DNA from: an uncultured bacterium
GTDB lineage: Bacteria; Patescibacteriota; Minisyncoccia; Phycocordibacterales; CAIZLB01
Length of the DNA: 64,000 nt
Direction: 5' to 3'
NCBI GenBank assembly: GCA_903848795.1
Contig: CAINHC010000021.1
Location: forward strand, 11,309-75,308
Shown here: positions 1,563 through 64,000 of the stretch, one piece after another
How the letters are laid out: each line of letters opens with the position of its first letter
Numbering within the stretch: position 1 is the stretch's first letter
Made by a program: the position numbers and the translations under genes
The notes under the pieces: generated by a model
What the model was told of the DNA's origin: nothing
What the model saw: only the letters and a program-made list of their open reading frames with translations
The model's database searches: none

Positions 1563-2348
1563 TTAGAGAAGCTCTTTAATTATTTCTTTCGTTTGCTCTT
1601 TTCCAGAAACATTAACGCAATCAACCCCATCCTCCTTTACAGAATAATCATTTCCGTTTGGAACAACTTCATCACCGATAAATAGCATTCTCTCCAGTGG
1701 TATATTTAGAAAATCACGAAGCTTGTTTACACCGTATGCTTTATTCACTCCTTTAATTGTAACATCAACTGATGTTAAACCACCCATGGAAACATCAAAA
1801 AGAGGGATTTTATCCTTTAAAATATTAACAATAGCTTGACGCTTACTTTTATCTGGATCCCACGCCTTCTTTAGTTCAAGTGGTGCTTGTTGACCAAGGG
1901 CTGAGAAGGTTATTTGCGACTCCCGATCTTCTACTCTCTCGCCAAAAACATGTTCTGGCAAAATAAACCCAGTCTCAACCCAAGCCTCCTCAATACACTT
2001 AATGATATTCTTCCTATCCTCAGGGGAAATATTTTCAGAATAGCCTTCATGCCACCCTGCAGAAAGTTCTGCACTATTTTTTTCAATTCCTCTATCTTTC
2101 CATGCGTACATTCTCGTTCCTGTTGTTGGTAGCAAGAATAAATTTTTAAGCAACTCAGTACTTGCCGGCAAATTACTTAGAAACTGTTTTTCAAATTGAA
2201 TAAACATTCCTCCAGAAATAACTGCTACTTTTCTCTTTTTCAAAAGTTCAATAATCAAATCTGCCATATCATTATCAAGTGGAGACTTGCTATCAGCGAG
2301 AGTTCCATCGAGATCGAATATGATAAGTTCTTTTTCTTGGTAGTTCAT
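1563..2348 (-). CDS. Phosphomannomutase, eukaryotic-type (HAD-IIB, PMM family)
   Basis: LIIFDLDGTLADSKSPL...KVAVISGG...FIGDEVVPNGNDYSV aligns with PMM1/2 (LCLFDVDGTLT...IGVVGGSD...FFGDKTMPGGNDHEI). Confidence 0.65.
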   Translation of the reverse strand: MNYQEKELIIFDLDGTLADSKSPLDNDMADLIIELLKKRKVAVISGGMFIQFEKQFLSNLPASTELLKNLFLLPTTGTRMYAWKDRGIEKNSAELSAGWHEGYSENISPEDRKNIIKCIEEAWVETGFILPEHVFGERVEDRESQITFSALGQQAPLELKKAWDPDKSKRQAIVNILKDKIPLFDVSMGGLTSVDVTIKGVNKAYGVNKLRDFLNIPLERMLFIGDEVVPNGNDYSVKEDGVDCVNVSGKEQTKEIIKELL

Positions 2349-2407
2349 GTTGTTTTGTTAATTTGATTTTTTGTTAATTTTTTTTGATTCGCTTTGGGTA
2401 TTTTAAT

Positions 2408-4315
2408 CTATAATCTTAATTTGTTTAATAAATCTTCTAATTTAATTGTAGCAACTCCCGTCACACTATCACCTGCTCCATAATATATATAGGCTCGGTC
2501 TTCTCTCATAACCAAACTACATGGAAATACCACCTTAGGAACTAATCCATTCACCTCATAAGGTGCCTCTGGTTCAAAAATCGGAGCAGCAGTCTTTGCT
2601 TTTACAACTGTTGGGTTTTCTAGGTCAAGTAAAAGCGCACCGACTCTATATGTCTTATTTTTGGAAATTCCGTGGTACAAAATCAGCCAGCCTTCAGCGG
2701 TTTTGAGTGGTGGACCAGCGATACCAATTTTAACACCATCCCACATACCAGGTTCGGGGTTTAGTATATCTATACACTTTGTAATTTTTTCTTTTGTAAA
2801 ATCAAGAGTTTCGACAAAGTCAGCACAAATACTATTATCAACTCTATGAATTATCATGTACTTTCCGTGTATCTTTTCTGGGAAAATAACTGCGTCTTTG
2901 ATGGGAATATTTGGCGGGGTAATTACATTTGGCATTGACCATTGTTCCCATTTTCTAGCAAGAAAATCATCGACGGAAATTGAACTCACTGCAACTCTTG
3001 GAGTTATGCCGTTATAGGCAGTGTAAGTCATGTATATAATATCTCCAATTCTAATTAAACGTGGGTCTTCACATCCATAATTATTATTTGCTCCATCATC
3101 TCTTTTTTCAAAATCAGCACGAGGAGTATATATTGGCATTTTTGGACGCTCATCGATTTTTAGTCCATCCTTACTATACGCATACCCCAGGACAGAAACA
3201 TTTCCAGCAGAGGCCGCACGATAGATAATGTGAGTCTCGCCATTCAAGTTAATCACCGCAGGATTTATTGTACCACCAGCTTCCCATGCCACCCCATCAC
3301 GAGGAGAAAGTATTGGGTTGCCTGCAAATCTCTTGAATTTATGCTCAAGCATTGAGTCAGTCATTAGACTCAATAAGTTTTCTAAATTAACAAAAGCAAC
3401 AGCGCAATGTGTATCAGCTCCCCCGTAATATATTTCCAATCGACCGCCCTTAACTAGAGTTCCTGTTGGAAATATAATATTGGAAACATGACCAGTCTTT
3501 TCGTAATACGTACTTGGAACCATAAATGGACCATTTGTCCTTCCAATAATTCTTCTTGGATTTTCCAAATCAAGTAATACTGCTTCAACTCCAAATATTG
3601 GATTCTGAGTTGAATAGTCTTGAATGTGGGAATATATAACAAGCCAGCCCTTTTCTGTCTTAAGTGGCGGGGTTCCCATCTCAACCTGATCACTATCTTT
3701 TCTTCGTAGATTTATTTTATGCTGGTCTCCTTCCTTCAGCCAATCATGCCATTTTTGGTCATTCCACAGATCTTCAGGCTTATCAAATTCTACATAACAA
3801 ATATCAGCTGGCCATTTGTCAGTGTTAATCGTGACGAGTCCTGCGATTTTGCCATTTATTTTCTCTGAGAACAAAGCCATTGCCTTTGCATTAAAAGGTG
3901 TAACTAAATGTTTCTCTTTAACAGTATTCAAATCATCACTTAAAGCGACTGCCACTTTTATATTATCAGCTGAGAAAGGATAGCCACCGAGCGCGGTGTA
4001 GAATGTATAATATACGCCATCAATTTTTGTTATTCTTGGATCTTCACACCCATATTTGTCATAGTCTTCACTTGGGCCAAAAAATTGTCTACGATTTTCA
4101 AAATTAATTCCATCTATCGATTCGGCAATACCAATAACAGAAGTACTTATGTGAGGCTCCATCAAATGATCTGGTTCAGACATCGCTCTATAAACAATGT
4201 GAGTCTTTTCACCTGAGACAATCGGACAACCATTAAAAGAAGAGTGGGCTTCCCATGGATGTTCCTGAATGGGTGAAAGTATTGGATTATGTTCTAGTCT
4301 ATTTAGTGTAAACAT
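2408..4315 (-). CDS. Tandem double-domain GH130 (beta-mannoside phosphorylase/hydrolase family) protein
   Basis: Two ~300-aa halves, each with the GH130 GCEDPR motif followed by a YxTYTA block (GCEDPRITKIDGVYYTFYTA and GCEDPRLIRIGDIIYMTYTAYNG). Confidence 0.7.
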   Translation of the reverse strand: MFTLNRLEHNPILSPIQEHPWEAHSSFNGCPIVSGEKTHIVYRAMSEPDHLMEPHISTSVIGIAESIDGINFENRRQFFGPSEDYDKYGCEDPRITKIDGVYYTFYTALGGYPFSADNIKVAVALSDDLNTVKEKHLVTPFNAKAMALFSEKINGKIAGLVTINTDKWPADICYVEFDKPEDLWNDQKWHDWLKEGDQHKINLRRKDSDQVEMGTPPLKTEKGWLVIYSHIQDYSTQNPIFGVEAVLLDLENPRRIIGRTNGPFMVPSTYYEKTGHVSNIIFPTGTLVKGGRLEIYYGGADTHCAVAFVNLENLLSLMTDSMLEHKFKRFAGNPILSPRDGVAWEAGGTINPAVINLNGETHIIYRAASAGNVSVLGYAYSKDGLKIDERPKMPIYTPRADFEKRDDGANNNYGCEDPRLIRIGDIIYMTYTAYNGITPRVAVSSISVDDFLARKWEQWSMPNVITPPNIPIKDAVIFPEKIHGKYMIIHRVDNSICADFVETLDFTKEKITKCIDILNPEPGMWDGVKIGIAGPPLKTAEGWLILYHGISKNKTYRVGALLLDLENPTVVKAKTAAPIFEPEAPYEVNGLVPKVVFPCSLVMREDRAYIYYGAGDSVTGVATIKLEDLLNKLRL

Positions 4316-20967: not shown

Positions 20968-21109
20968 GCGTTAATAATAACATCATCAATAATCAAAGCA
21001 AGCAACATTCTATTGAATAAACTGACCTTATCACAAACCACCATGCAAGAAGTTCTGACGTTCAAGACGCTTATTATAAAAAGGCTTGAAACAAAGGCGG
21101 AAATACCGG

Positions 21110-21181
21110 CTGGGAGACTAGGAATCGAACCTAGATTAAAAGCTTCAAAGGCTTCTGTCCTACCGTTAGACGATCTCCCAA
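21110..21181 (-). tRNA. tRNA-Gln (anticodon UUG)
   Basis: The reverse complement gives a 7-bp acceptor stem GGGAGAT/GTCTCCC, T-loop GGTTCGATTCC, and anticodon loop CTTTGAA (U-UUG-A). No encoded CCA. Confidence 0.8.
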
Positions 21182-29759: not shown

Positions 29760-30872
29760 CTAAAATGTCCTGAAATAACAAGATGACCCTTGTACACTTC
29801 TAATAAAATCATCCTTTTGATCTCGAGACATTGTTGGGTTTTTAAGGACCTGCTCTATCACTGAAGCCTGACTTTCATTACCAGTTAACTTACTTCCCAA
29901 GACCGAACTCAACAAATCGAGGAGGGTTTGACTACATGTCTTGGTAATTAGTCCGAATACAGCCTCAACTTCCTTATTGGAATTCATGGTTAACGTACAC
30001 ACTCCAGTACCTGAACATGTACTTTCCTTTACTAACGGACTCCATCTTATAAAAACAGATTTATCATTAGGTATTGCTGTTAAGGTAACCTTACTATTTT
30101 CCTTATACTTTTCAAAACAATCATTTTCACAGTTTATCCCTTGGCCAACAATTTTTCCTCCAGGCTCTCCGTTAAAATTAGTCACGACCACGCTAGTTTT
30201 TAAGGAATATCTATTCTCTCTTGGAGAAAATCTAGCGAAAACCTTTTTGTCCTTATTCATTATGACAGAAATAGTGGATCCTTGTTCTGTAGAATCTCCA
30301 CTCCAACCATCAAAAATTGAATTTGCATCTGGTGTTGCCTTTAGACTCACAACTGTATTTGGATTATACAAGTTTGAACACGCATTGCCGCAATTAATAA
30401 TATTATCAGAGGACACAACAACACCCTTTCCATGAATTACCACTATCTTTCCGCTAGCGTCTAACTTGCCAGTTATAACTGATGACGGAGAAACCAATAA
30501 ACTATATTTACTACTATTATAATTCGAATTATTAATGCCAGAGTTACTACTTAAATTAGTACCACTATTACTGCTTAAGTTCGAACCGCTGTTACTACTA
30601 ATGTTACTACCGCTAGTATTAGGTTGACTATTAGAAGTAGACGGAGAATTCACAGATGAACTAGGCACAACAGCATTCCCAACCGCCGCCACTAAATTAC
30701 CCGCCCCGCTTCCAACATATCCAAGTGTGTTTTTAATATTTGAGTATTGTGAGAAAATTAGCGCCAATGCCAACACCGCAACAAATGCTGTTGGGTATTT
30801 TGAATTAAATTGTTTTGATTTCATGTTAATTTTAATATATAAGAAGTAAGATACCACTTTAGTATATAACAC
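29760..30872 (-). CDS. Secreted protein with Ser/Asn-rich linker and two divergent InlB B-repeat-like domains
   Basis: Signal peptide from the internal Met (MKSKQFNSKYPTAFVAVLALALIF); repeats IINCGNACSNLYNPNTVVSLKATPDANSIFDGWSG and GINCENDCFEKYKENSKVTLTAIPNDKSVFIRWSP (C..C..Y..G..V.L.A.P......F..WS pattern). Confidence 0.5.
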   Translation of the reverse strand: MLYTKVVSYFLYIKINMKSKQFNSKYPTAFVAVLALALIFSQYSNIKNTLGYVGSGAGNLVAAVGNAVVPSSSVNSPSTSNSQPNTSGSNISSNSGSNLSSNSGTNLSSNSGINNSNYNSSKYSLLVSPSSVITGKLDASGKIVVIHGKGVVVSSDNIINCGNACSNLYNPNTVVSLKATPDANSIFDGWSGDSTEQGSTISVIMNKDKKVFARFSPRENRYSLKTSVVVTNFNGEPGGKIVGQGINCENDCFEKYKENSKVTLTAIPNDKSVFIRWSPLVKESTCSGTGVCTLTMNSNKEVEAVFGLITKTCSQTLLDLLSSVLGSKLTGNESQASVIEQVLKNPTMSRDQKDDFIRSVQGSSCYFRTF

Positions 30873-30919
30873 GAACTTAATATTATCAACAACATAGCCC
30901 TACAATAAGTGGATAAATC

Positions 30920-31420
30920 CTACACCGTTAACCTCCTCAACTCGGCAATCTCCGTCTCAAGACGATGCTCATCAATTTTTAGCCTAGCAATCTCACCTTC
31001 CTCAATCTTCTTCCTTCCTTGAACCACATTGAGTTCTCGCGCTTGATTTGCACCTGTTTTTTCTGCGTACGCCTTTAGACTCATCTCTTTTTCAATTTCC
31101 TTTTCTAAATCTCTAATCTTGTTTTTTAGTTCTCTAATTTTAAAATCAAAGTTGTCAGTATGACCATGCGCAGTGGTTGATAGTTTAACAACGCTAGAAT
31201 CTACTCTTTTCAAATCCATTGTTCTTCTACTAATCTCATCCTTTATCATGCGAAGCTTCACTTCTTTTGATTGAATATTCTGCTTGGCACGCATTTGCTG
31301 TTCTCTCTTTCTCTGCTCTGTTATTTGCCTTAGGCGCATTTGCTCCCCTGCAGCAGCATCAAACCCAAGCGCCTGCTTGTGTTGTGAAAAACTATTGCCC
31401 TGTTGATATCCAAATACCAT
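30920..31420 (-). CDS. Charged coiled-coil protein, last gene of the pilus-like operon
   Basis: Heptad-rich with K/E/R-rich sequence; no TM helix. Confidence 0.35.
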   Translation of the reverse strand: MVFGYQQGNSFSQHKQALGFDAAAGEQMRLRQITEQRKREQQMRAKQNIQSKEVKLRMIKDEISRRTMDLKRVDSSVVKLSTTAHGHTDNFDFKIRELKNKIRDLEKEIEKEMSLKAYAEKTGANQARELNVVQGRKKIEEGEIARLKIDEHRLETEIAELRRLTV

Positions 31421-31429
31421 ATTGTTTTA

Positions 31430-31903
31430 TTATACACCATTATCTATGGAATCAAAAAATAAAAGGTCTGATTGATATCTTTTGTTATGATTAAATTTAG
31501 CGACGTCGTCATTGTTTAAAATTATATTCATTGAGCAATCTTCCGGGAGACTTGGACAAACCCTACTTGACGAAGAAATTAGAGTTGAATATAGTGTTTC
31601 CACTTTTTGATTACTCATTCTAGTTCGCCCATATAGATTAGAAAAATAAATTTTATAAACATCTTGGTTTTGAATTTCAGCGACCCTCGCCTGAGTAGAT
31701 AGTTGAGCACTCATCCAAATCATTGATTCTATGGCAGTGACAGCAAAAATTATAAAGATGGAGCAATAAATGACGACCTCTATTAGTGTGAAGCCTTTGT
31801 TTTGGCGGGCGTTTTGGCAGGCACGAGCAACTGAAATGACCCGGTTAGGCTGACTAACCCCCTGGGCGGTCCCGATCGAATTGATTTTATTTTTTATAAT
31901 CAT
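31430..31903 (-). CDS. Type IV pilin / pseudopilin with class III (prepilin peptidase) signal and an unusually long ~37-aa leader
   Basis: ...ARQNKG|FTLIEVVIYCSIFIIFAVTAIESM carries the G/FTLIE cleavage-methylation motif plus a hydrophobic helix. Confidence 0.65.
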   Translation of the reverse strand: MIIKNKINSIGTAQGVSQPNRVISVARACQNARQNKGFTLIEVVIYCSIFIIFAVTAIESMIWMSAQLSTQARVAEIQNQDVYKIYFSNLYGRTRMSNQKVETLYSTLISSSSRVCPSLPEDCSMNIILNNDDVAKFNHNKRYQSDLLFFDSIDNGV

Positions 31904-31924
31904 ATATTAAAAGTTGTTAGCATA

Positions 31925-33223
31925 TTAAGCGGGTTTTAATTCGAATATAATCGGCGTAATAGATTCAGTCGAAGTTCCAGCCATTTTATATATCGACCCG
32001 ACTCCAAATATTTTTGACCCAAAACAATCCATGTCATATACCGCTCCGCCGACATCTATTGTTTGAATTATCTTAGAGATATCCTCCTCATTCCTAATTT
32101 GAATCTTTGAATTACTTTTCCCTTCCGCCAAGAACAGCTCGTGATTTGCGATTATCATGGAATAAATTCCGTCATTAACATCGATTGAATTAATTAGGTC
32201 ATAGCTATATGTGCTTGATGCTGAAGTCGCGACTAACACTGAAGAGTAATCTCTCGTCATGTTAACTTTGAATAATTCATTGTTGCCCGTAGTTCTGCCT
32301 ACATATATCGCACCATCCTTTGCAATTAAACTTCTAACATTCCCAAGCGATCCAAATAAATCAAAAGTATTCAGAGGTGACGCTGTCGCAAACGAAGAAG
32401 TTGTTGTCGAAAATGGCGGAAAATCACAGTTCAAACAAAAGTCATTTATCTCAGGCTCTTTTGCTGTTGAAATTAGTAAATGCAAATATTTATCATACAT
32501 CGGCCAAATATCCTGAACAGAGCTATCCAGCTCCCACTTTCTATTTATCGCAGAAGGGAGTCCTCCACCTATTTTATTCAAATCAATGGACAACAACTCT
32601 TCCCCACTATTTTTCTTGAGTCCAAGGAAAAGATTTGGGTAAATTGCCGATATTTTAGTTCCATATACCGGATTCCCAGATGATGACCAAGGTACTTTAT
32701 AATCCCCAGCCTTCTCCAGTTTTTTGGAAACTGAATTAAATTTAAATCGCTGAAGTGTACTATTCACACTGGAGTTAATGAGAAATAAATTTTTGCCGAC
32801 AAGTGCGCCGCCAACAATCCCAGGACCCGAATCCACTTTATCAATCGGAACCAAAATATCCTGCGCGTCATATGCAATCAAATCATAATCTGTGGTAGAT
32901 GCAGAATTTAAACCAACGAAAAGATGCTGACCATCTGAGGTTATAAAGACAGCGTCGGTTGAAGTTGATTTAACGGGAATATTTTTGATGGACAGTGTAT
33001 ATGTTTTCGTCGGGGCAATGATGTCGTCGTTAGACTCGCATACATCACCCCTATTCATTAGTGACTCTGACGTAACTTTTGTCACATCAAAAATAGTTTG
33101 ATTTGAAACGTCTTGAATCAACTTATAGGGCGACCTTTCATTTAAATCCATAATATACGAATTCATTGGGACCAAAATCATAATCCAAAGTATTAAGGAT
33201 GTAATTAGTTCTAATATGAGCAT
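31925..33223 (-). CDS. Membrane-anchored hypothetical protein within the pilus operon (possible pilus tip or assembly factor)
   Basis: N-terminal TM helix; 432 aa with beta-rich composition; assigned by operon context only. Confidence 0.3.
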   Translation of the reverse strand: MLILELITSLILWIMILVPMNSYIMDLNERSPYKLIQDVSNQTIFDVTKVTSESLMNRGDVCESNDDIIAPTKTYTLSIKNIPVKSTSTDAVFITSDGQHLFVGLNSASTTDYDLIAYDAQDILVPIDKVDSGPGIVGGALVGKNLFLINSSVNSTLQRFKFNSVSKKLEKAGDYKVPWSSSGNPVYGTKISAIYPNLFLGLKKNSGEELLSIDLNKIGGGLPSAINRKWELDSSVQDIWPMYDKYLHLLISTAKEPEINDFCLNCDFPPFSTTTSSFATASPLNTFDLFGSLGNVRSLIAKDGAIYVGRTTGNNELFKVNMTRDYSSVLVATSASSTYSYDLINSIDVNDGIYSMIIANHELFLAEGKSNSKIQIRNEEDISKIIQTIDVGGAVYDMDCFGSKIFGVGSIYKMAGTSTESITPIIFELKPA

Positions 33224-33237
33224 GGGTGAATAATTAA

Positions 33238-34305
33238 TTAATAACCCGTGTACGATATTAATGAATACATCGGAGTGATAATCGACACGGCAATAAAGCC
33301 CACTCCAAGACCGACCATTATCATCGATACTGGCTCAATCAATTTATTGATCATTGTAATACCATCATCAAAATATTCTTGATGAATATCGGCAATTGAA
33401 GAAAATGTTTCTGAAATTGAACCAGTTTGTTCTCCGCAAACAATGAGCGGTACCCAGATTTTATTTTCTCTTGATATTTCTCGGCTTATACTTCTTGATA
33501 ACAAAACCCCACTCTCAACATCTCGAGCAACGTTTAATAACTTTATTTTTTCTTTAGGGATAATTGATCCCATCGCCGAGTCTCTGAGAGATTCCACCAA
33601 AAGTCCGCTAGATGCAAAAACTTCACTTGCAATACGAAAGCTGATAAGGGCGGAGTAGTGACTAAGCAGTGCGCCGAGAATTGGGACCTTCACCAAAAAA
33701 GCGCCGACATAATTTTTGAAATAATTAATCCCCTTATTTTTGATGATAAATAAAATTAAAAATGTGCAGAGGATAATGAGGCTAGAAATAAAGATAATTA
33801 CATGAATCAAATATGTACTCAAGAAAAATAGGACTTGCGTTGTCCAAGGAATTTTGATTCGGCCTCCGCTAAAGAGTGGTTTAATTTTAGGAACAATTAT
33901 TATCAGGATCATAAACACCAATATGATGGACACTGTGAATATAATGAAAGGATAAAGCAAGGCAAGTAAAAACTTGGATTTGGTTTTGTCTATGCTTTTA
34001 CTCATTTCACATACTCTATTAATCCCCTCTGCTAAACTACCGGACTCCTCAGACTTTTTGATGATTGTTAATTCATAATCTCTAATTGGTAAACCCAACT
34101 CTTCAATTGACTGACCAAATGTTTTACCTGATTTTAAATTATCAATTATTTGCCTTTTCCAATCAAAATTATTTTCGTCACAAAAAACTTCCAATGATTC
34201 AATCAGTGGAACACCAGAAGAATACAATCTGGCGAACATTTTGAAATGCCCGAGTATTTCTTTTCTTAATTTTGATTTGCTAATTTTCTTCATATTTTGG
34301 TTCAA
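33238..34305 (-). CDS. Type II secretion / type IV pilus platform protein (GspF/PilC family)
   Basis: Two T2SSF-like halves with three TM helices. The C-terminal region (GEQTGSISETFSSIADIHQEYFDD...IEPVSMIMVGLGVGFIAVSIITPMY) is typical of GspF/PilC. Confidence 0.7.
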   Translation of the reverse strand: MNQNMKKISKSKLRKEILGHFKMFARLYSSGVPLIESLEVFCDENNFDWKRQIIDNLKSGKTFGQSIEELGLPIRDYELTIIKKSEESGSLAEGINRVCEMSKSIDKTKSKFLLALLYPFIIFTVSIILVFMILIIIVPKIKPLFSGGRIKIPWTTQVLFFLSTYLIHVIIFISSLIILCTFLILFIIKNKGINYFKNYVGAFLVKVPILGALLSHYSALISFRIASEVFASSGLLVESLRDSAMGSIIPKEKIKLLNVARDVESGVLLSRSISREISRENKIWVPLIVCGEQTGSISETFSSIADIHQEYFDDGITMINKLIEPVSMIMVGLGVGFIAVSIITPMYSLISYTGY

Positions 34306-35359
34306 ATTTCTTCACCTTATTTTCCCTATCCTCCTCCATTGATTCGTAAGTAAATTCCTGCTTATATCTTTCGTTATTTGAGCTGCCTGAATCATCATCC
34401 ATAAACACACTCTGTGCATCCCCTCCTTTGTTATTTACCAAACTCTCAAACATGGCTATTTGTTCAAAATTCCACTCCGCGCCACTTTCAACCTTTTCGA
34501 GTCTTTGATTAAATATTGCTCTAGTAACCATTGATAATTCATAAGCGTCAGCCCCAAGATATCGGCATCTTCTAATTGTCATCCTTATATCCCTTGCATG
34601 AATTGTGGTAATGACAGTATGCCCCGTCAGTGCAAGATTCATCACACTTTTCATTGTGTCAGAATCCCTGACCTCACCGACATAAATCACATCTGGATCT
34701 TGTCGCATTGAAGCCTTGAGAGCCTGAGCATAATTGAATCCAGATTGAGGGCGTATTTGAACTTGTCTTAGACCCTCTATCCTCCTCTCAACTGGATCCT
34801 CAATCGTTAGTATCTGTTTATTCTCTTCAATCAATGACGAAAGCAAACTATATGCACTCGTAGACTTTCCACTCCCCGTCGGACCAGAAAATATTACAAG
34901 ACCAGGAGATGTCCGTAGACCTTCAAGTAAATTATGAAAGATATTCGACGACATTCCTGCGTCAGTTAAATACTGAATTTGTAAACTCGCGGAATCAAGA
35001 ATACGAAGAACCATACACTCCCCATCGACTCCAGGTATTGTAGCGACACGTACTCTATAACCCTCATGACCAAAACTACCGTCTTGCGGTATATCTTTTA
35101 TATCAATACGCATCTGAGCCAAAATCTTGTATCGACCGATCAGCTCAATATATTGGCCGTAGCTTATGAAGCGACCAACACTCATGTGACCCTTTATTCT
35201 GAATCTAATTTCTGTCCTATCCTTGGATGGCTGAATGTGAATGTCTGAAGCCTTTAATTGTATAGCATCAATGATAAGAGCATCAGCTTGGTCGACTGAG
35301 TTTTTTGAATTTATATATAAAAGTGATTCGATAATATTTTCCTCTTGCTCTTGTACCAT
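34280..35359 (-). CDS. GspE/PilB/PilT-family secretion ATPase
   Basis: Walker A FSGPTGSGKST, Asp box VIYVGEVRD, His box GHTVITTIHA. Overlaps the pilC start by 26 nt. Confidence 0.75.
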   Translation of the reverse strand: MVQEQEENIIESLLYINSKNSVDQADALIIDAIQLKASDIHIQPSKDRTEIRFRIKGHMSVGRFISYGQYIELIGRYKILAQMRIDIKDIPQDGSFGHEGYRVRVATIPGVDGECMVLRILDSASLQIQYLTDAGMSSNIFHNLLEGLRTSPGLVIFSGPTGSGKSTSAYSLLSSLIEENKQILTIEDPVERRIEGLRQVQIRPQSGFNYAQALKASMRQDPDVIYVGEVRDSDTMKSVMNLALTGHTVITTIHARDIRMTIRRCRYLGADAYELSMVTRAIFNQRLEKVESGAEWNFEQIAMFESLVNNKGGDAQSVFMDDDSGSSNNERYKQEFTYESMEEDRENKVKKFEPKYEEN

Positions 35360-35449
35360 GGGGACATACTACCAGAATGACATAATGCTTCTATAAAAAT
35401 TTCTTAAAGAATTTCAAAAGATTTTGTGTATTAAAAAAATAAGCAAGAG

Positions 35450-35870
35450 AAAACCCCCTCCCGAAGATATTGTTCACCAGCTAACCTGCCGATGAATACA
35501 ATAACCCATAGTCCAACTACGAGAGGGGGCCGATGGAGGTGCCATAACACCTCCGAATGAATGCGGAAGACAAGAAAAAGGTTTGGGTTGGGACAAAGAA
35601 TCAGGGGTCTTCATCCCAGTCGCTGATCAGCAGGTGTTCTCCTCATAAGGTTGGGGTGTTCTGCTTTCAGCAAACGACGAGGCGGCCGGCGGCGACGCAC
35701 GAGTCTTCTTGGCGGACGATGGCGGCGGCGGTGCTAAACGACGGCGTAACTGGGGCACGCGGAGTGCCAAATTGGTGTTTGATCATGGGGTTGTGTTCTG
35801 GTTTGGGGTTGTCTGTTTTTCTTTCAGCGGAATACCTCCATAACTGGGAGCTTTTCTGAATATAATGCTA
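35450..35870. other. GC-rich (~52% GC) ~420-nt non-coding island with stable hairpins; candidate structured RNA or foreign DNA remnant
   Basis: Contains ggaggtg-ccataa-cacctcc, long-range complementarity ccccctc...gaggggg, and GC-rich runs ggcggccggcggcgacg and gatggcggcggcggtgct. The only ORF (35557..35859) has no protein-like features. Confidence 0.35.
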
Positions 35871-35969
35871 TCAAAACCACTAAAAATAGCAATATTGTGA
35901 ATATTAGTTTATCCACAACCACTTTATACAACACGCCCGAACCCCAAGGTCAAACCGACCTTCAAAAAA

Positions 35970-36896
35970 CTATATCCTATACTCCCCTACACCCAATCTC
36001 TTAATCGAATACGCCAGAGCGGGCACCTTTAATTTATCGCCAATTAATTCTGCAAGGGTTCTCATATATGAACCGCTAGCGCACTTAACTTTTATTTTTA
36101 TAATTGGATATTCTATTTCCTCATTTTTATGTGCGCTTTTGGTTTTCTTTATTTTCTTTGCAAAAACTTTTTCATTCCATTCATTTAAAATTTTATCTTG
36201 TCTAAAATCCCCCTTAACCTTTGCAATTCTTTTCGAAATATTATTATGCAAAATTTCAATAGGCATCAAACTCAAATCCAGAAATTCAATTTTCTGAATA
36301 GATAATTTGGTCATTGGTCTTAAAAATATTTCTCGCCTGTCTTCGCCTACTTCATTTACGTCACCTTCCTCCTCCGCAAACTCTCTCGCCCACTCATACA
36401 ACGGCTTACCCTCCAGGGTCTTTGAAGAAAACCAAGGATACGGCACCTCCATCTCCCCCACAAACGATTCGCAAATACTTTGGACATTTTTCAGATCAAA
36501 TACAACATCGCCTAAAATCGACTCACCAATCAAACCTAAAATATCCCCCGTATCCGTGCTGACCCCCAACAAGACCTCAACCTCATACTCCTTACTCAGC
36601 CCCAAATACTCATGTTTAGACTTAATGGCCTCACCTCTCAGATATATCATAAGACCCTCAGCCATAGGGTCAAGCCTACCAGCATAGGTAAATTTATCAT
36701 TAAATGGCAAAAAACCTTCGTCCTTAAGACGGTTAAGACACTCGAGTGGAGTCTCCCCCTCATTTTTATAGGCCACAAAAACATCACTTTGTGTAGGCTG
36801 AAGTTGATTGTCTAAATTGCTCATATTAGGATACAATAATACCACTAAATTAATAAATATGAGAAAACTTTTTTTTGACATTGAAACCAGAAACAC
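35970..36896 (-). CDS. Pseudouridine synthase, TruB-like
   Basis: Catalytic-Asp motif AGRLDPMAEGLMIYL and TruB-type KEYEVEVLLGVSTDTGDILG (K.Y...v.lG..TDT.D). Start uncertain (several in-frame Met). Confidence 0.5.
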   Translation of the reverse strand: MFLVSMSKKSFLIFINLVVLLYPNMSNLDNQLQPTQSDVFVAYKNEGETPLECLNRLKDEGFLPFNDKFTYAGRLDPMAEGLMIYLRGEAIKSKHEYLGLSKEYEVEVLLGVSTDTGDILGLIGESILGDVVFDLKNVQSICESFVGEMEVPYPWFSSKTLEGKPLYEWAREFAEEEGDVNEVGEDRREIFLRPMTKLSIQKIEFLDLSLMPIEILHNNISKRIAKVKGDFRQDKILNEWNEKVFAKKIKKTKSAHKNEEIEYPIIKIKVKCASGSYMRTLAELIGDKLKVPALAYSIKRLGVGEYRI

Positions 36897-47550: not shown

Positions 47551-47759
47551 ATTGGGAGAGATAATTTTAAAAAAAATTCAGATAAATAAAATCCAAAATT
47601 CAAAAGATTTTGGGTTTTATTTTGCAGCAAAAGGCTAGGACTATATTATTAAGTTTTCTTTTTTTGATTTTCTTAATATAGTTTTCGACAGAGATTGACA
47701 CACATTTATCTACCTTGTACCATACTAAAGGATCCGTGAAAATACAGATCCAAGAAAAT

Positions 47760-48080
47760 TCAGATTAAGTAAAACAGCAACCCCAGAACCAATACCAAAT
47801 GAACGAGCCCGATAATGAACACCATTCAGCCGCAAAATGCAATGACAAAACTGGTGAAAAAACAAAGACCGACCAGACAGAAGTCACCATTGGCACCACT
47901 CCACACAGCCCAAGGTCTATGACGGCCACCAAAGATGATAAGCCATACATGCCCCACTGGCGGCAACATCTCAAGGCTGCAAGGAATAGGATGAATGAGT
48001 GCCACGAAGAGGACTGACCGGTCAATAGGCATTGACCCTCCGGTGTCCCCGCGCAAGCGCGGACGCCGGATTTCTTTTAT
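47760..48080 (+). other. GC-rich ~320-nt segment with a 72-aa hydrophilic ORF (47799..48017) and a plus-strand terminator hairpin (48033-48075)
   Basis: ccggtgtccccgcgc-aa-gcgcggacgccgg followed by atttcttttatt. Composition ~50% GC against ~35% in the flanks. Confidence 0.3.
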
Positions 48081-48105
48081 TCAAAAATTGATTCTCTTTC
48101 CCTGA

Positions 48106-62643: not shown

Positions 62644-62763
62644 AAAGCGTCTATTTAATTAAACGAGAATTGGTAAAAGTGAGCCCGCGAAAGAGCAGTA
62701 AAACTCAATCGTCTTTACGCAGACCCTTATAGTATATGATTTATCCACAGGTGTCAATTTTAA

Positions 62764-62937: not shown

Positions 62938-63765
62938 TTACCTAAATAAAGGCGTATTTTTAATCAATTCAGGATCATGGTTCTCTAACCTCATCTTATG
63001 GCTATGTTTAACGGTTCTTAAATAACAAAGAGGTATAACATGATCACGTAAGCCAAACTTCTTGGACCTAGTAACAAAATCACTATCTTCATAGTTCCAC
63101 CCATTAAACGACTCATCATAACCACCAATTAGATCAAAGTATTTTTTAAACAGAAATATTCTGCCCCCAATTCCAAAATTATCAAAGAATTTTTCACTAT
63201 AAGTATAACCCATGCACGAACCAATAGACTTTGGTTTTTTATTTAAAACGTAATTTATAAAGTATGCAAAATCCTTCCCTGTAAAATTATCAGCGTCTAA
63301 GTTGCAGACAATATTTCCAGTTGCAAATCTGTGGGCCATGTTTTTTGCCTTACTTGCATGGAAGTATTTAGGCTCTCTTGTCTGGTAATATTTAAGAACT
63401 CCCGACTTTATGTATTCATCTAAATTACCCCTAACCCAGAATTCCAAATCGTCCTTAGAATTATAGTCCAGAAGAACAAACTCCACATTTGGATAATTAA
63501 TATTATTAAGGATGTTTTTCAGCAACGTCTTCTTAATATGCTCCGACCTGTTCATACAGGTGATACAAAAGGATATTTTGTATAACTTATCGACAGGCTT
63601 ATTTTTGAAATCCTCAGCAGATAGCCAACTCGAGAAGAAGACAAATTTGGTATAGCAAAACTTCGCAATTCCCCAGACCTTATCTTTTATCCAGACGGTA
63701 AATTTCCAAATAAAATTTTTCTTCCCTCGCCTTGATTCAATATTTGATAGTATTTTACTAAACAT
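62938..63765 (-). CDS. GT-A fold glycosyltransferase (family 2-like)
   Basis: ISFCITCMNRSEHIKKTL...VEFVLLDYNSKDD...NLDADNF (DxD). The likely true start is the internal Met near MNRSEH. Confidence 0.5.
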   Translation of the reverse strand: MFSKILSNIESRRGKKNFIWKFTVWIKDKVWGIAKFCYTKFVFFSSWLSAEDFKNKPVDKLYKISFCITCMNRSEHIKKTLLKNILNNINYPNVEFVLLDYNSKDDLEFWVRGNLDEYIKSGVLKYYQTREPKYFHASKAKNMAHRFATGNIVCNLDADNFTGKDFAYFINYVLNKKPKSIGSCMGYTYSEKFFDNFGIGGRIFLFKKYFDLIGGYDESFNGWNYEDSDFVTRSKKFGLRDHVIPLCYLRTVKHSHKMRLENHDPELIKNTPLFR

Positions 63766-63798
63766 AGATATTGTTAATTTGAACTCTCTTCCATCTTA

Positions 63799-64000
63799 GT
63801 TTTTTTCCACAGTTTCCATCTTTGGTTTTACCTCCGCTTTTGATACCTCTTTTGACCCTCCTTTTAAACCCTCATTTATTCCACCTTTTCTATCGTTTCT
63901 CCACCCCTCAATCTTTTTATGATCACCGCTCAAAAGAATTTGTGGAACTTTGTATTTTTTACCATTAAACTCTACTGTTTCAGGCCTAGTATAAACATCC
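63799..64000 (-). CDS. trmD: tRNA (guanine37-N1)-methyltransferase, 3' end; runs off the window end
   Basis: Minus-strand translation ...GPETVEFNGKKYKVPQILLSGDHKKIEGWRNDRKGG...* matches the TrmD C-terminus (VPEVLLSGNHAEIRRWR). Stop codon at complement(63796..63798). Confidence 0.6.

Follow-up and report, generated by a model that had tools for sequence, protein, structure and literature searches.

The window analysed here is a stretch of 64,000 nucleotides (nt) from an uncultured bacterium (GTDB lineage Phycocordibacterales, CAIZLB01; contig CAINHC010000021.1), and its most GC-rich part is an island (35433-35873) lying between pilB, the gene for a pilus ATPase, and truB, the gene for a TruB_N protein. 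With moderate confidence, and on the basis of comparative sequence analysis, this island is read as a stand-alone, accessory small open reading frame (ORF) transcription unit on the minus strand, whose product is possibly a dual-function RNA. The layout of the unit is conserved in five orthologous copies, a short frame within it (ORF1) has a codon periodicity of the coding type, and the unit is dispensable, being absent in close relatives. In the mechanism proposed, a host-type extended -10 promoter would give rise to a minus-strand transcript of ~425 nt (roughly 35858 to 35433), placed between truB and a separately promoted, leaderless pilB. A G-poor, CA-rich leader, of the type used by the leadered genes of this Shine-Dalgarno (SD)-poor genome, would precede the translation of the 39 codons of ORF1, which is made of host-rare C-ending codons; a second, minute frame (mini-ORF2) would be placed for re-initiation 20 nt past ORF1, and a hairpin-rich 3' region would end at a strong stem and U-tract terminator. 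The unit is, judging from these features, probably both transcribed and translated.

The comparison covered five orthologs from lake metagenome assemblies, i.e., the window itself, L003, L006 (the same as L014 and L015), L010 and L005; two contigs with truB-pilB spacers of 569 nt and 374 nt were left out of it, and among the further relatives inspected several have a different synteny or lack the island. The GC-rich island between a pilus ATPase and a truB-like gene had already been pointed out in an earlier reading of the sequence (the original prediction), and both its composition and its flanking genes were confirmed: GC content across 35500-35800 is 0.54-0.59 (200-nt windows) and reaches its maximum for the whole window here, where the mean is 0.377 (standard deviation 0.052). 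Long ORFs leave 12 gaps of 250 nt or more, and only two of these exceed a GC content of 0.47, namely the island (150-nt maximum 0.62) and the region 47551-48105 (0.57). An identical PilB protein is encoded on 15 contigs, and the 610-nt spacer recurs with 100% identity in L001 and L002, assembled from two further sequencing runs, which excludes both an artefact of assembly and a hypermutating site and makes the chimera envisaged in the original prediction unlikely. The GC excess has two sources, which are ORF1 (rich in Pro, Arg, Ala, Gly and Thr, and in NNC codons) and the GC-rich hairpins.

The original prediction had seen no credible ORF in the island and had taken the element as mainly RNA. 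Neither point is supported, given the presence of a 39-codon minus-strand ATG frame (35786..35667) with a conserved start and codon periodicity in the five orthologs, a frame that accounts for much of the GC excess. In 5/5 orthologs the ATG aligns, with ORF lengths of 39, 41, 58, 43 and 31 codons, and the periodicity of G at codon position 1 and C at position 3 (G1/C3) in its frame is significant in each of them (p 0.0002-0.003, shuffle tests), the other two phases showing nothing. The signal is limited to the ORF1 stretch, where C3 reaches 0.39-0.56 across the orthologs versus 0.13 in host genes. Between L006 and L010, the net difference in ORF1 amounts to 45 nt with the stop codons aligned, net length differences being multiples of 3, whereas the gaps in the leader and the 3' region are not. 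The predicted peptide begins with MIKHQFGTPRAPVTPSF, and the codons for its P-R-A-P block (CCG CGT GCC CCA in the window, CCA CGC GCA CCC in L006 and CCA..CGC GCT..CCG in L005) differ at third positions only, all differences being synonymous, whereas the antisense translation of the block is not conserved. These synonymous-only differences, together with the direction of the promoter and the terminator, indicate that the coding strand is the minus one. The same region, at about residues 9-12 of 31-58, reads PRAPV in the window, PRAPA in L006, RAAPP in L005, PRTA in L003 and GVPP in L010. Among the features by which a small-ORF gene is recognized, the start, the open frame, the periodicity and the frame-preserving indels are all found, and a synonymous bias is seen at the P-R-A-P block only. 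The peptide would act via this N-terminal motif, leaving its tail free to vary; no hydrophobic N-terminal segment, signal peptide or transmembrane (TM) segment was detected in any of the five peptides.

A second frame, noticed post hoc, follows in 5/5 orthologs: the ATG of mini-ORF2 stands 15-21 nt past the ORF1 stop and opens 6-11 codons (MKAHLDQL in L003, MISQFDQP in L006, MIIQFGQP in L010 and MIPPHH in L005). In the four orthologs other than the window, GGG(G) comes at most 2 nt after its stop, as part of a G-run that forms the 5' arm of a hairpin; in the window its TGA overlaps the loop of a hairpin.

Upstream of the leader, the promoter block (pattern GGTTTTGMTRGCATTAT) of the window shares 93% identity with that of L003, and the block is also kept in L006 and L010. 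Its TGnTAnnnT element is the promoter style found before many genes of this genome. TAnnnT (often TGnTAnnnT) ends 4-9 nt before the start codon in 18 of 47 long ORFs (background 0.14), a position which implies that those genes are leaderless, while an SD-like (GGAG-like) motif precedes only 5/47, and the leadered genes have G-poor A/CA-rich leaders; as far as its start regions indicate, the genome is SD-poor and largely leaderless. Transcription of the island is predicted to start near 35858; the ATG follows the predicted start by 72-74 nt in four orthologs, and by 81 nt in L010. In the leader (pattern, e.g., AGAAAAACAGACAACMCCAAA) the 5' hairpins are only marginally better than shuffles (z -0.1 to -2.7), and the tract that follows them is predicted to be unpaired in 4/5 orthologs. 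A CA-rich leader that matches other leaders of a genome with so few SD-like motifs supports the reading as a small-ORF unit, and the conservation of a promoter and a terminator that both point to the minus strand supports a unit on that strand.

The hairpins of the 3' region are in part those of the original prediction, since its 7-bp hairpin ggaggtg/cacctcc is present, and so is its long-range pairing ccccctc...gaggggg, which forms part of the terminal stem (35454-35460 with 35523-35529). In the orthologs, a different hairpin stands at the spot of the former, just upstream of the terminal stem (e.g., CAAGGGGC-TT-GCCCCTTG in L006). As for the terminal stem, its z against shuffles is -4.6 in the window and -1.5, -4.5, -4.1 and -5.6 in the other orthologs, i.e., it is far more stable than shuffles in 4/5, and its arms and loop length differ between lineages while the pairing is kept. 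At 35463-35444 a consensus scan calls a minus-strand site that resembles a terminator; the conserved tail reads T(A/T)T(T/C)CT(C/T)TTGC, and the stem with its U-tract is read as the probable intrinsic terminator of a minus-strand transcript. Further upstream, a GGGG...CCCC hairpin is found in every ortholog with different inner pairs (GGGGCA/TGCCCC, GGGGAG/CTCCCC, GGGGAT/ATCCCC). The motifs AAGAC and TGTCTT are kept in the window, L003, L006 and L010, and AAGAC may pair with GTCTTC, a pairing that shows no covariation. As to the covarying pairs in relatives that the original prediction proposed to look for, the pairing of the terminal stem is kept with changed sequence; RNAalifold yields only one small shared helix from the 3' domains, whose MAFFT alignment does not respect structure. 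Past the terminator, the promoter block of pilB is kept in all loci, with or without the island, and a pilB with its own conserved leaderless promoter at that position means that the island is not the pilB 5' untranslated region. Within this block, AATTCTTTAGAAAATCTTTATAGAA (35389-35413, minus strand) is highly conserved in all orthologous loci and contains the inverted repeats TTCT-TT-AGAA and TCT-TTATA-AGA; it may be an operator for a regulator of the pilus operon.

With regard to the rates of change, identity at the four-fold sites of truB and pilB is 0.60-0.63 between the window and L003 and 0.63-0.70 between L006 and L010, and about 0.4-0.5 (saturated) in other pairs. Identity between the window and L003 is 0.93 in the upstream flank, 0.45 (shuffle level) in the leader, 0.61 in ORF1, 0.57 in the 3' region and 0.89 in the downstream flank, and the respective values between L006 and L010 are 0.67, 0.76, 0.51, 0.77 and 0.89. 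Judging from these figures, the transcribed interior evolves at a roughly neutral rate: the leader and the 3' region are modestly constrained and most of the peptide only slightly, whereas the promoter and the post-terminator DNA are strongly constrained. The leader of the window is nearer to that of L006 (0.65) than to that of its sister L003, which points to uneven rates or to allele exchange.

The only other GC-rich intergenic region of the window holds, on the plus strand, a sister unit with the layout of the island. Local similarity connects its leader with the leaders of the window island (z 4.8) and L006 (z 3.8), at an equal distance from the predicted start, and its peptide contains IGTTPHSPRS, reminiscent of the FGTPRAP and IGAPRAP of the island peptides. 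A homologue search with its 72-amino acid (aa) ORF returned the ORF itself only, and an nhmmer profile of the five transcripts does not detect the unit. It faces a convergent helicase-like gene (1276 aa), which shows that such units can stand alone and weighs against a purely cis-regulatory reading.

The distribution of the island among relatives is patchy. It is present, in a GC-rich spacer of 560-690 nt, in L003 (PilB 93% identical in aa), L006=L014=L015 (87%), L010 (86%) and L005 (75%), and absent, with a truB-pilB spacer of 96-137 nt, in L004 (PilB 85%), L019 (76%) and L022/L023 (84%). In L016-L018 (about 1945-3000) the site is occupied by a gene for a 268-aa Bro-N domain protein, between two copies of the ~55-nt pilB promoter block (AAAATCTTTGGTATTTCTTTATCTTTTCTTTATAGAAAACTCAT...). 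In L010 (986-1887, minus strand) two adjoining transposase-like ORFs (115 aa, and 185 aa with a Cys-rich N-terminus) lie between truB and the island, which supports the truB-pilB spacer as an insertion hot spot; the island is an accessory element at this hot spot. The duplication of the promoter block around the Bro-N gene resembles a target duplication or a recombination site. Furthermore, the island-less spacer of L004 (3845-3955) keeps ...ATCCCTCA...CTCCGTATCTTTGC, resembling the arms of the terminal stem and the TATTCTTTTGC tail, and this remnant suggests a deletion in L004 rather than an island that was never present. Contigs with identical PilB differ after pilC (about 29760-33223 in the window; one product has 418 or 432 aa, and a Flg_new_2 / InlB B-repeat protein has 354 or 370 aa), from which it follows that pilus-associated genes vary between strains.

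Features of the island, its flanking genes and the sister unit (window coordinates; transcription and translation features are predictions)
Feature	Coordinates	Strand	Description
truB	35970..36896	-	TruB_N protein; flanks the island
DnaA-box-like element	35909..35917	-	TGTGGATAA, reverse complement of the consensus TTATCCACA; ~16 nt upstream of the -35-like hexamer
Promoter-like region	35865..35892	-	-35-like TTGCTA (35892-35887), 16-nt spacer, extended -10 TGATAGCAT (35873-35865)
5' leader	35787..35858	-	~72 nt; weak hairpin 35836-35851, then G-poor CA-rich tract 35825-35787 up to the ATG
ORF1	35667..35786	-	39 codons, MIKHQFGTPRAPVTPSFSTAAAIVRQEDSCVAAGRLVVC; conserved ATG, codon periodicity; N-terminal motif hydrophobic-G-(T/A)-P-R-A-P, variable remainder
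Mini-ORF2 (predicted)	35611..35646	-	11 codons, MRRTPADQRLG; 20 nt past the ORF1 stop; spans conserved GATCAG (35628-35623)
Small hairpin	35565..35619	-	GGG-AUGAAGA-CCC (35619-35602), AAGAC in the loop; complementary GTCTTC at 35572-35565
7-bp hairpin	35535..35554	-	GGAGGTG-loop-CACCTCC; arms 35535-35541 / 35548-35554
Terminal stem-loop and U-rich tract	35433..35531	-	Arms 35531-35520 and 35463-35452; tract UUUUCUCUUGCUUAUUUUUUU (35453-35433)
pilB promoter region	35366..35413	-	Block AATTCTTTA..TTTATAGAA, extended -10 TGGTAGTAT ending 6 nt before the pilB ATG; lower boundary of the island
pilB	34280..35359	-	T2SSE/PilB-type ATPase; flanks the island
Sister unit, promoter	47695-47723	+	TTGACA-17-TACCAT
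Sister unit, 5' hairpin	47730-47751	+	GGATC/GATCC; z -2.7
Sister unit, ORF	47799-48017	+	72 codons, ATG at 47799, after a CA-rich leader
Sister unit, terminator	48040-48081	+	Strong

Several points weigh against the reading of the island as a small-ORF unit. The length of ORF1 is not significant by itself (P 0.19-0.35 per ortholog). Most of its substitutions are saturated, with no synonymous excess in the sense or the antisense frame, so that only its N-terminal block would be under protein-level constraint, and dN/dS-type counts, whose outcome depends on the frame guiding the alignment, are uninformative outside that block. The G1/C3 periodicity is symmetric and cannot alone distinguish the strands. 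The codon adaptation index is 0.41 (versus 0.69 +/- 0.05, minimum 0.55, for 44 host ORFs), the C-ending codons being rare ones, and such an extreme usage is odd for a simply expressed gene. Searches of the island peptides and the plus-strand ORFs with Pfam, NCBIfam, PHROGs and PADLOC gave nothing above threshold, which leaves the peptide without a family, and the whole comparison rests on five orthologs, two of them close to each other. To this is added that between L006 and L010 the leader and the 3' region (0.76-0.77) are better conserved than ORF1 (0.51), a pattern that fits a function at the RNA level. Ordered by probability, the alternatives are a non-coding small RNA, an attenuator, a plus-strand gene or type I toxin-antitoxin pair, a foreign remnant and a known ribozyme. 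Could the frames be incidental, and the unit be a non-coding structured small RNA of ~425 nt from the minus strand, with its function in the 3' hairpin domain and/or in C-rich single-stranded motifs? Such an RNA, which we consider rather unlikely, would agree with that pattern of conservation, with the survival of GATCAG, (T/C)(A/T)GGGG, AAGAC and TGTCTT despite saturated neutral sites, with the terminal stem whose pairing outlives its sequence, with the four CCCCAA(A)CC-like motifs of the window copy and with the lack of a protein family match. However, an ATG-phased periodicity in 5/5 orthologs, frame-preserving indels and a P-R-A-P block with synonymous changes only would not be expected if the RNA were non-coding throughout; over ORF1 the sense RNA is rich in C, poor in G and folds no better than shuffles, the 3' domain yields a single small shared helix, and Rfam gives no match. 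Of the novel structured RNA put forward in the original prediction, a non-canonical GC-rich element with conserved hairpins stands, but a large folded RNA is not the best fit, much of the GC excess being in the short periodic frame. A function in cis, in which the translation of ORF1 and mini-ORF2 would decide on the formation of the terminal stem, and hence on read-through into the pilB-pilC operon, is improbable, although the island immediately precedes pilB in the same orientation, the end of its terminator being 73 nt from the pilB ATG. The tandem short ORFs with conserved spacing, the end of mini-ORF2 at or a few nt from the G-run hairpin, the several hairpins before the terminator, and a mostly unconstrained peptide, as in many leader peptides, with host-rare NNC codons would also suit an attenuator. 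Nonetheless, pilB has its own conserved leaderless promoter past the terminator whether or not the island is there, and a read-through RNA would carry its AUG internally, preceded by neither an SD nor a CA-rich leader; the ORF1 stop is ~135 nt from the terminal stem and 234 nt from the transcript end, and the sister unit faces a convergent gene with nothing downstream to regulate. As for mutually exclusive terminator and antiterminator pairings, the G-run and C-run arms could pair in alternative ways, with no specific or covarying pairing among them.

The symmetry of the G1/C3 periodicity means that it fits equally well the frame aligned antisense to ORF1, and a plus-strand gene has therefore to be weighed, be it the 100-aa ORF 35557..35859, which gene callers predicted on some contigs, or the 44-codon frame 35709..35843 antisense to ORF1, either of which might encode a type I toxin with a minus-strand RNA as antitoxin. 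The antisense frame is open over 44-121 codons in all orthologs and has a hydrophobic end, but this tail is the automatic product of translating the complement of the CA-rich tract. The starts on this strand are not conserved, and most of them are TTG, although the genome favours leaderless ATG; neither a promoter nor a terminator is conserved on the plus strand, the lone promoter-like match (35473-35502) lying in a loop that L010 lacks; the 100-aa ORF is antisense to the putative transcript and is not kept in the orthologs; and it is the sense frame that keeps G-x-P-R-A-P in the conserved block, the antisense translation of which is not conserved. A plus-strand gene is thus very unlikely. A type I toxin-antitoxin system is not supported, since the sense peptides are not TM-like and the antisense frame has non-conserved, mostly TTG starts and no conserved promoter. 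A functionless remnant of foreign GC-rich DNA, either a horizontally acquired gene fragment or the scar of a mobile element, also suggested in the original prediction, could explain why GC and codon usage are far from those of the host, and it would suit a spacer that is an insertion hot spot (Bro-N gene in L016-L018, transposase-like ORFs in L010) with varying presence among relatives. But orthologs at saturating divergence (four-fold identity 0.4-0.7) all keep the GC content, the periodicity, the ATG, the frame, the spacing of mini-ORF2 and the terminator, a preservation despite turnover that argues against a decaying fragment, as an unselected remnant should have decayed in a genome of 38% GC; the promoter is of host style and conserved, and neither the phage and plasmid collections nor the protein families gave a match for any tested frame, all of which leaves this explanation a marginal probability. 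As for a catalogued structured RNA (divergent RNase P RNA, tmRNA, SRP or 6S RNA, or similar), only the size and the GC-richness in an AT-rich genome speak for it, and it is effectively refuted. The Infernal/Rfam scan called for by the original prediction was run on both strands and found no known RNA: at the gathering threshold the whole window gives one tRNA elsewhere and no match at the island, at E<=10 only chance-level matches appear in 35200-36100 on both strands, the four orthologous loci give no match at the gathering threshold, and none of 4227 Rfam families matches the island. ARAGORN finds only a tRNA-Gln (21108-21180) and no tmRNA in the window. The original prediction had therefore been correct in reporting that canonical RNA motifs are lacking, and of its own candidates the RNase P RNA and the tmRNA both drop out. 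The island is moreover hypervariable in sequence, and, being missing in close relatives, it cannot be an essential RNA or ribozyme. Neither is its overall structure exceptional, the z of the whole-island minimum free energy against dinucleotide shuffles being +0.25 on the plus and -0.70 on the minus strand, on a par with shuffles.

Other candidates were tried and rejected. For a precursor of a lasso peptide or another ribosomally synthesized and post-translationally modified peptide (RiPP), the lone match is to Subterisin (E 0.055, 13.9 bits against a cut-off of 27), for the L003 peptide only, and the neighbours of the locus (truB, an RNase_H_2 exonuclease, DsbA, pilB and pilC) include no maturation enzymes. 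A diversity-generating retroelement is discarded, as no internal repeat or template repeat/variable repeat (TR/VR)-like second copy of any island segment was found in the 64 kb, the island is identical in independent samples, and truB, pilB and pilC, the only genes screened, are not reverse transcriptases. Searches for relatives of the island were likewise negative: blastn in distant mode gave no match for it in phages and plasmids, the nhmmer profile, run on the window and every locus (179 viral ones among them), scored the known copies alone, and three motif scans of viral contigs gave only chance matches in coding regions. The DnaA-box-like element upstream of the promoter is perfect in the window, L003 and L006, and the copies in L010 and L005 each carry a single mismatch. 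DnaA-box-like 9-mers number 26 in the window versus 21.6 expected, which is no enrichment; another perfect 9-mer lies at 62741 and four with one mismatch at 63488-63811, 3/4 of them within a glycosyltransferase gene (62938-63765). With no enrichment of boxes and no switch of GC skew in the window, a replication origin at the island was rejected.

Among known systems, the small-ORF unit proposed here is comparable in layout to the dual-function small RNAs and small-protein mRNAs, e.g., SgrS/SgrT, RNAIII/hld and SR1/SR1P. With them it shares a short independent transcript with its own promoter and intrinsic terminator, an ORF of a few dozen codons and conserved structured non-coding parts, and, by analogy, the 3' part of the RNA, which is better conserved, may act independently; unlike them, it has host-rare codons in ORF1 and a second mini-ORF, and there is no relation in sequence or family. 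Leader-peptide attenuators, either of the trp/his type or of the erm/cat type with one or two short ORFs, resemble the island in having short ORFs before hairpins and a terminator, in being co-directional with the downstream operon, and in their largely unconstrained peptide and rare codons; they differ from it in that the island has the pilB promoter past its terminator, no regulatory codon run, a length of ~425 nt and a sister without a downstream gene. Ribosome arrest peptides of the RAPP-like type comprise SecM (RAGP), ApdA/ApdP (RAPP) and ApcA (RAPG) (PMC12992588, PMC7897499, PMC10951233), and arrest depends on a C-terminal R-A/G-P-P/G core whose fourth residue, Pro or Gly, is critical (PMC12992588). 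In such monitoring substrates, release from arrest is linked to export by a signal peptide or TM segment at the N-terminus. ORF1 is like them a small ORF with a conserved Arg-Ala-Pro motif upstream of a gene for an export or assembly machinery, but P-R-A-P is followed in it by V or A, the critical fourth Pro/Gly being missing, L005 has RAAPP and L010 has no Arg; the motif stands near the N-terminus (residues 9-12), the peptides have neither a signal peptide nor a TM segment, and the pilB start is not sequestered in a leader hairpin. With the motif at the wrong end, the fourth residue missing and no export signal, an arrest peptide of this type was rejected.

Polymorphic loci for peptide pheromone or bacteriocin precursors (comC, comX and agrD types) offer another comparison. 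The island has in common with them a conserved N-terminal part with a hypervariable rest, divergent alleles (0.45-0.61) between conserved flanks (0.93 and 0.89), and a position next to an operon of the type IV pilus/competence type; unlike them, it has no adjacent gene for processing, export or a receptor and no double-glycine or other known leader, and the divergence of its interior is roughly neutral, not demonstrably above. A more speculative proposal goes further, namely that the island and its sister unit represent an undescribed class of translation-gated RNA units in SD-poor, largely leaderless bacteria, in which a rare-codon ORF, driven by a conserved promoter and a CA-rich leader, would serve as sensor, ribosomes that re-initiate on a mini-ORF would be parked at the base of a hairpin and thereby set the fold or the termination of a conserved 3' RNA domain, and the tail of the peptide would be free; or else the tail would be a strain-specific signal peptide tied to the pilus/DNA-uptake machinery. 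We regard this proposal as unlikely. Pipelines for the discovery of structured non-coding RNAs use long GC-rich intergenic regions in AT-rich genomes as their signal (PMC6429828, PMC8723152, PMC11109978), and the island was picked out by the same signal; it differs from their candidates in that the comparative signal consists mainly of coding-type periodicity and a terminator, not of covarying helices.

The scope of the finding is one lineage-restricted orphan unit. If real, it would add an unannotated small gene or dual-function RNA for poorly known, uncultured lake bacteria, one that gene callers miss or call on the wrong strand, and it would show that GC-rich islands between the genes of AT-rich genomes are not necessarily folded non-coding RNAs. 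A frame of rare codons kept through saturating divergence could point to selection on translation speed or on mRNA stability. Furthermore, the position at a recombination/insertion hot spot beside the type IV pilus operon makes a link to strain-specific pilus biology worth testing.

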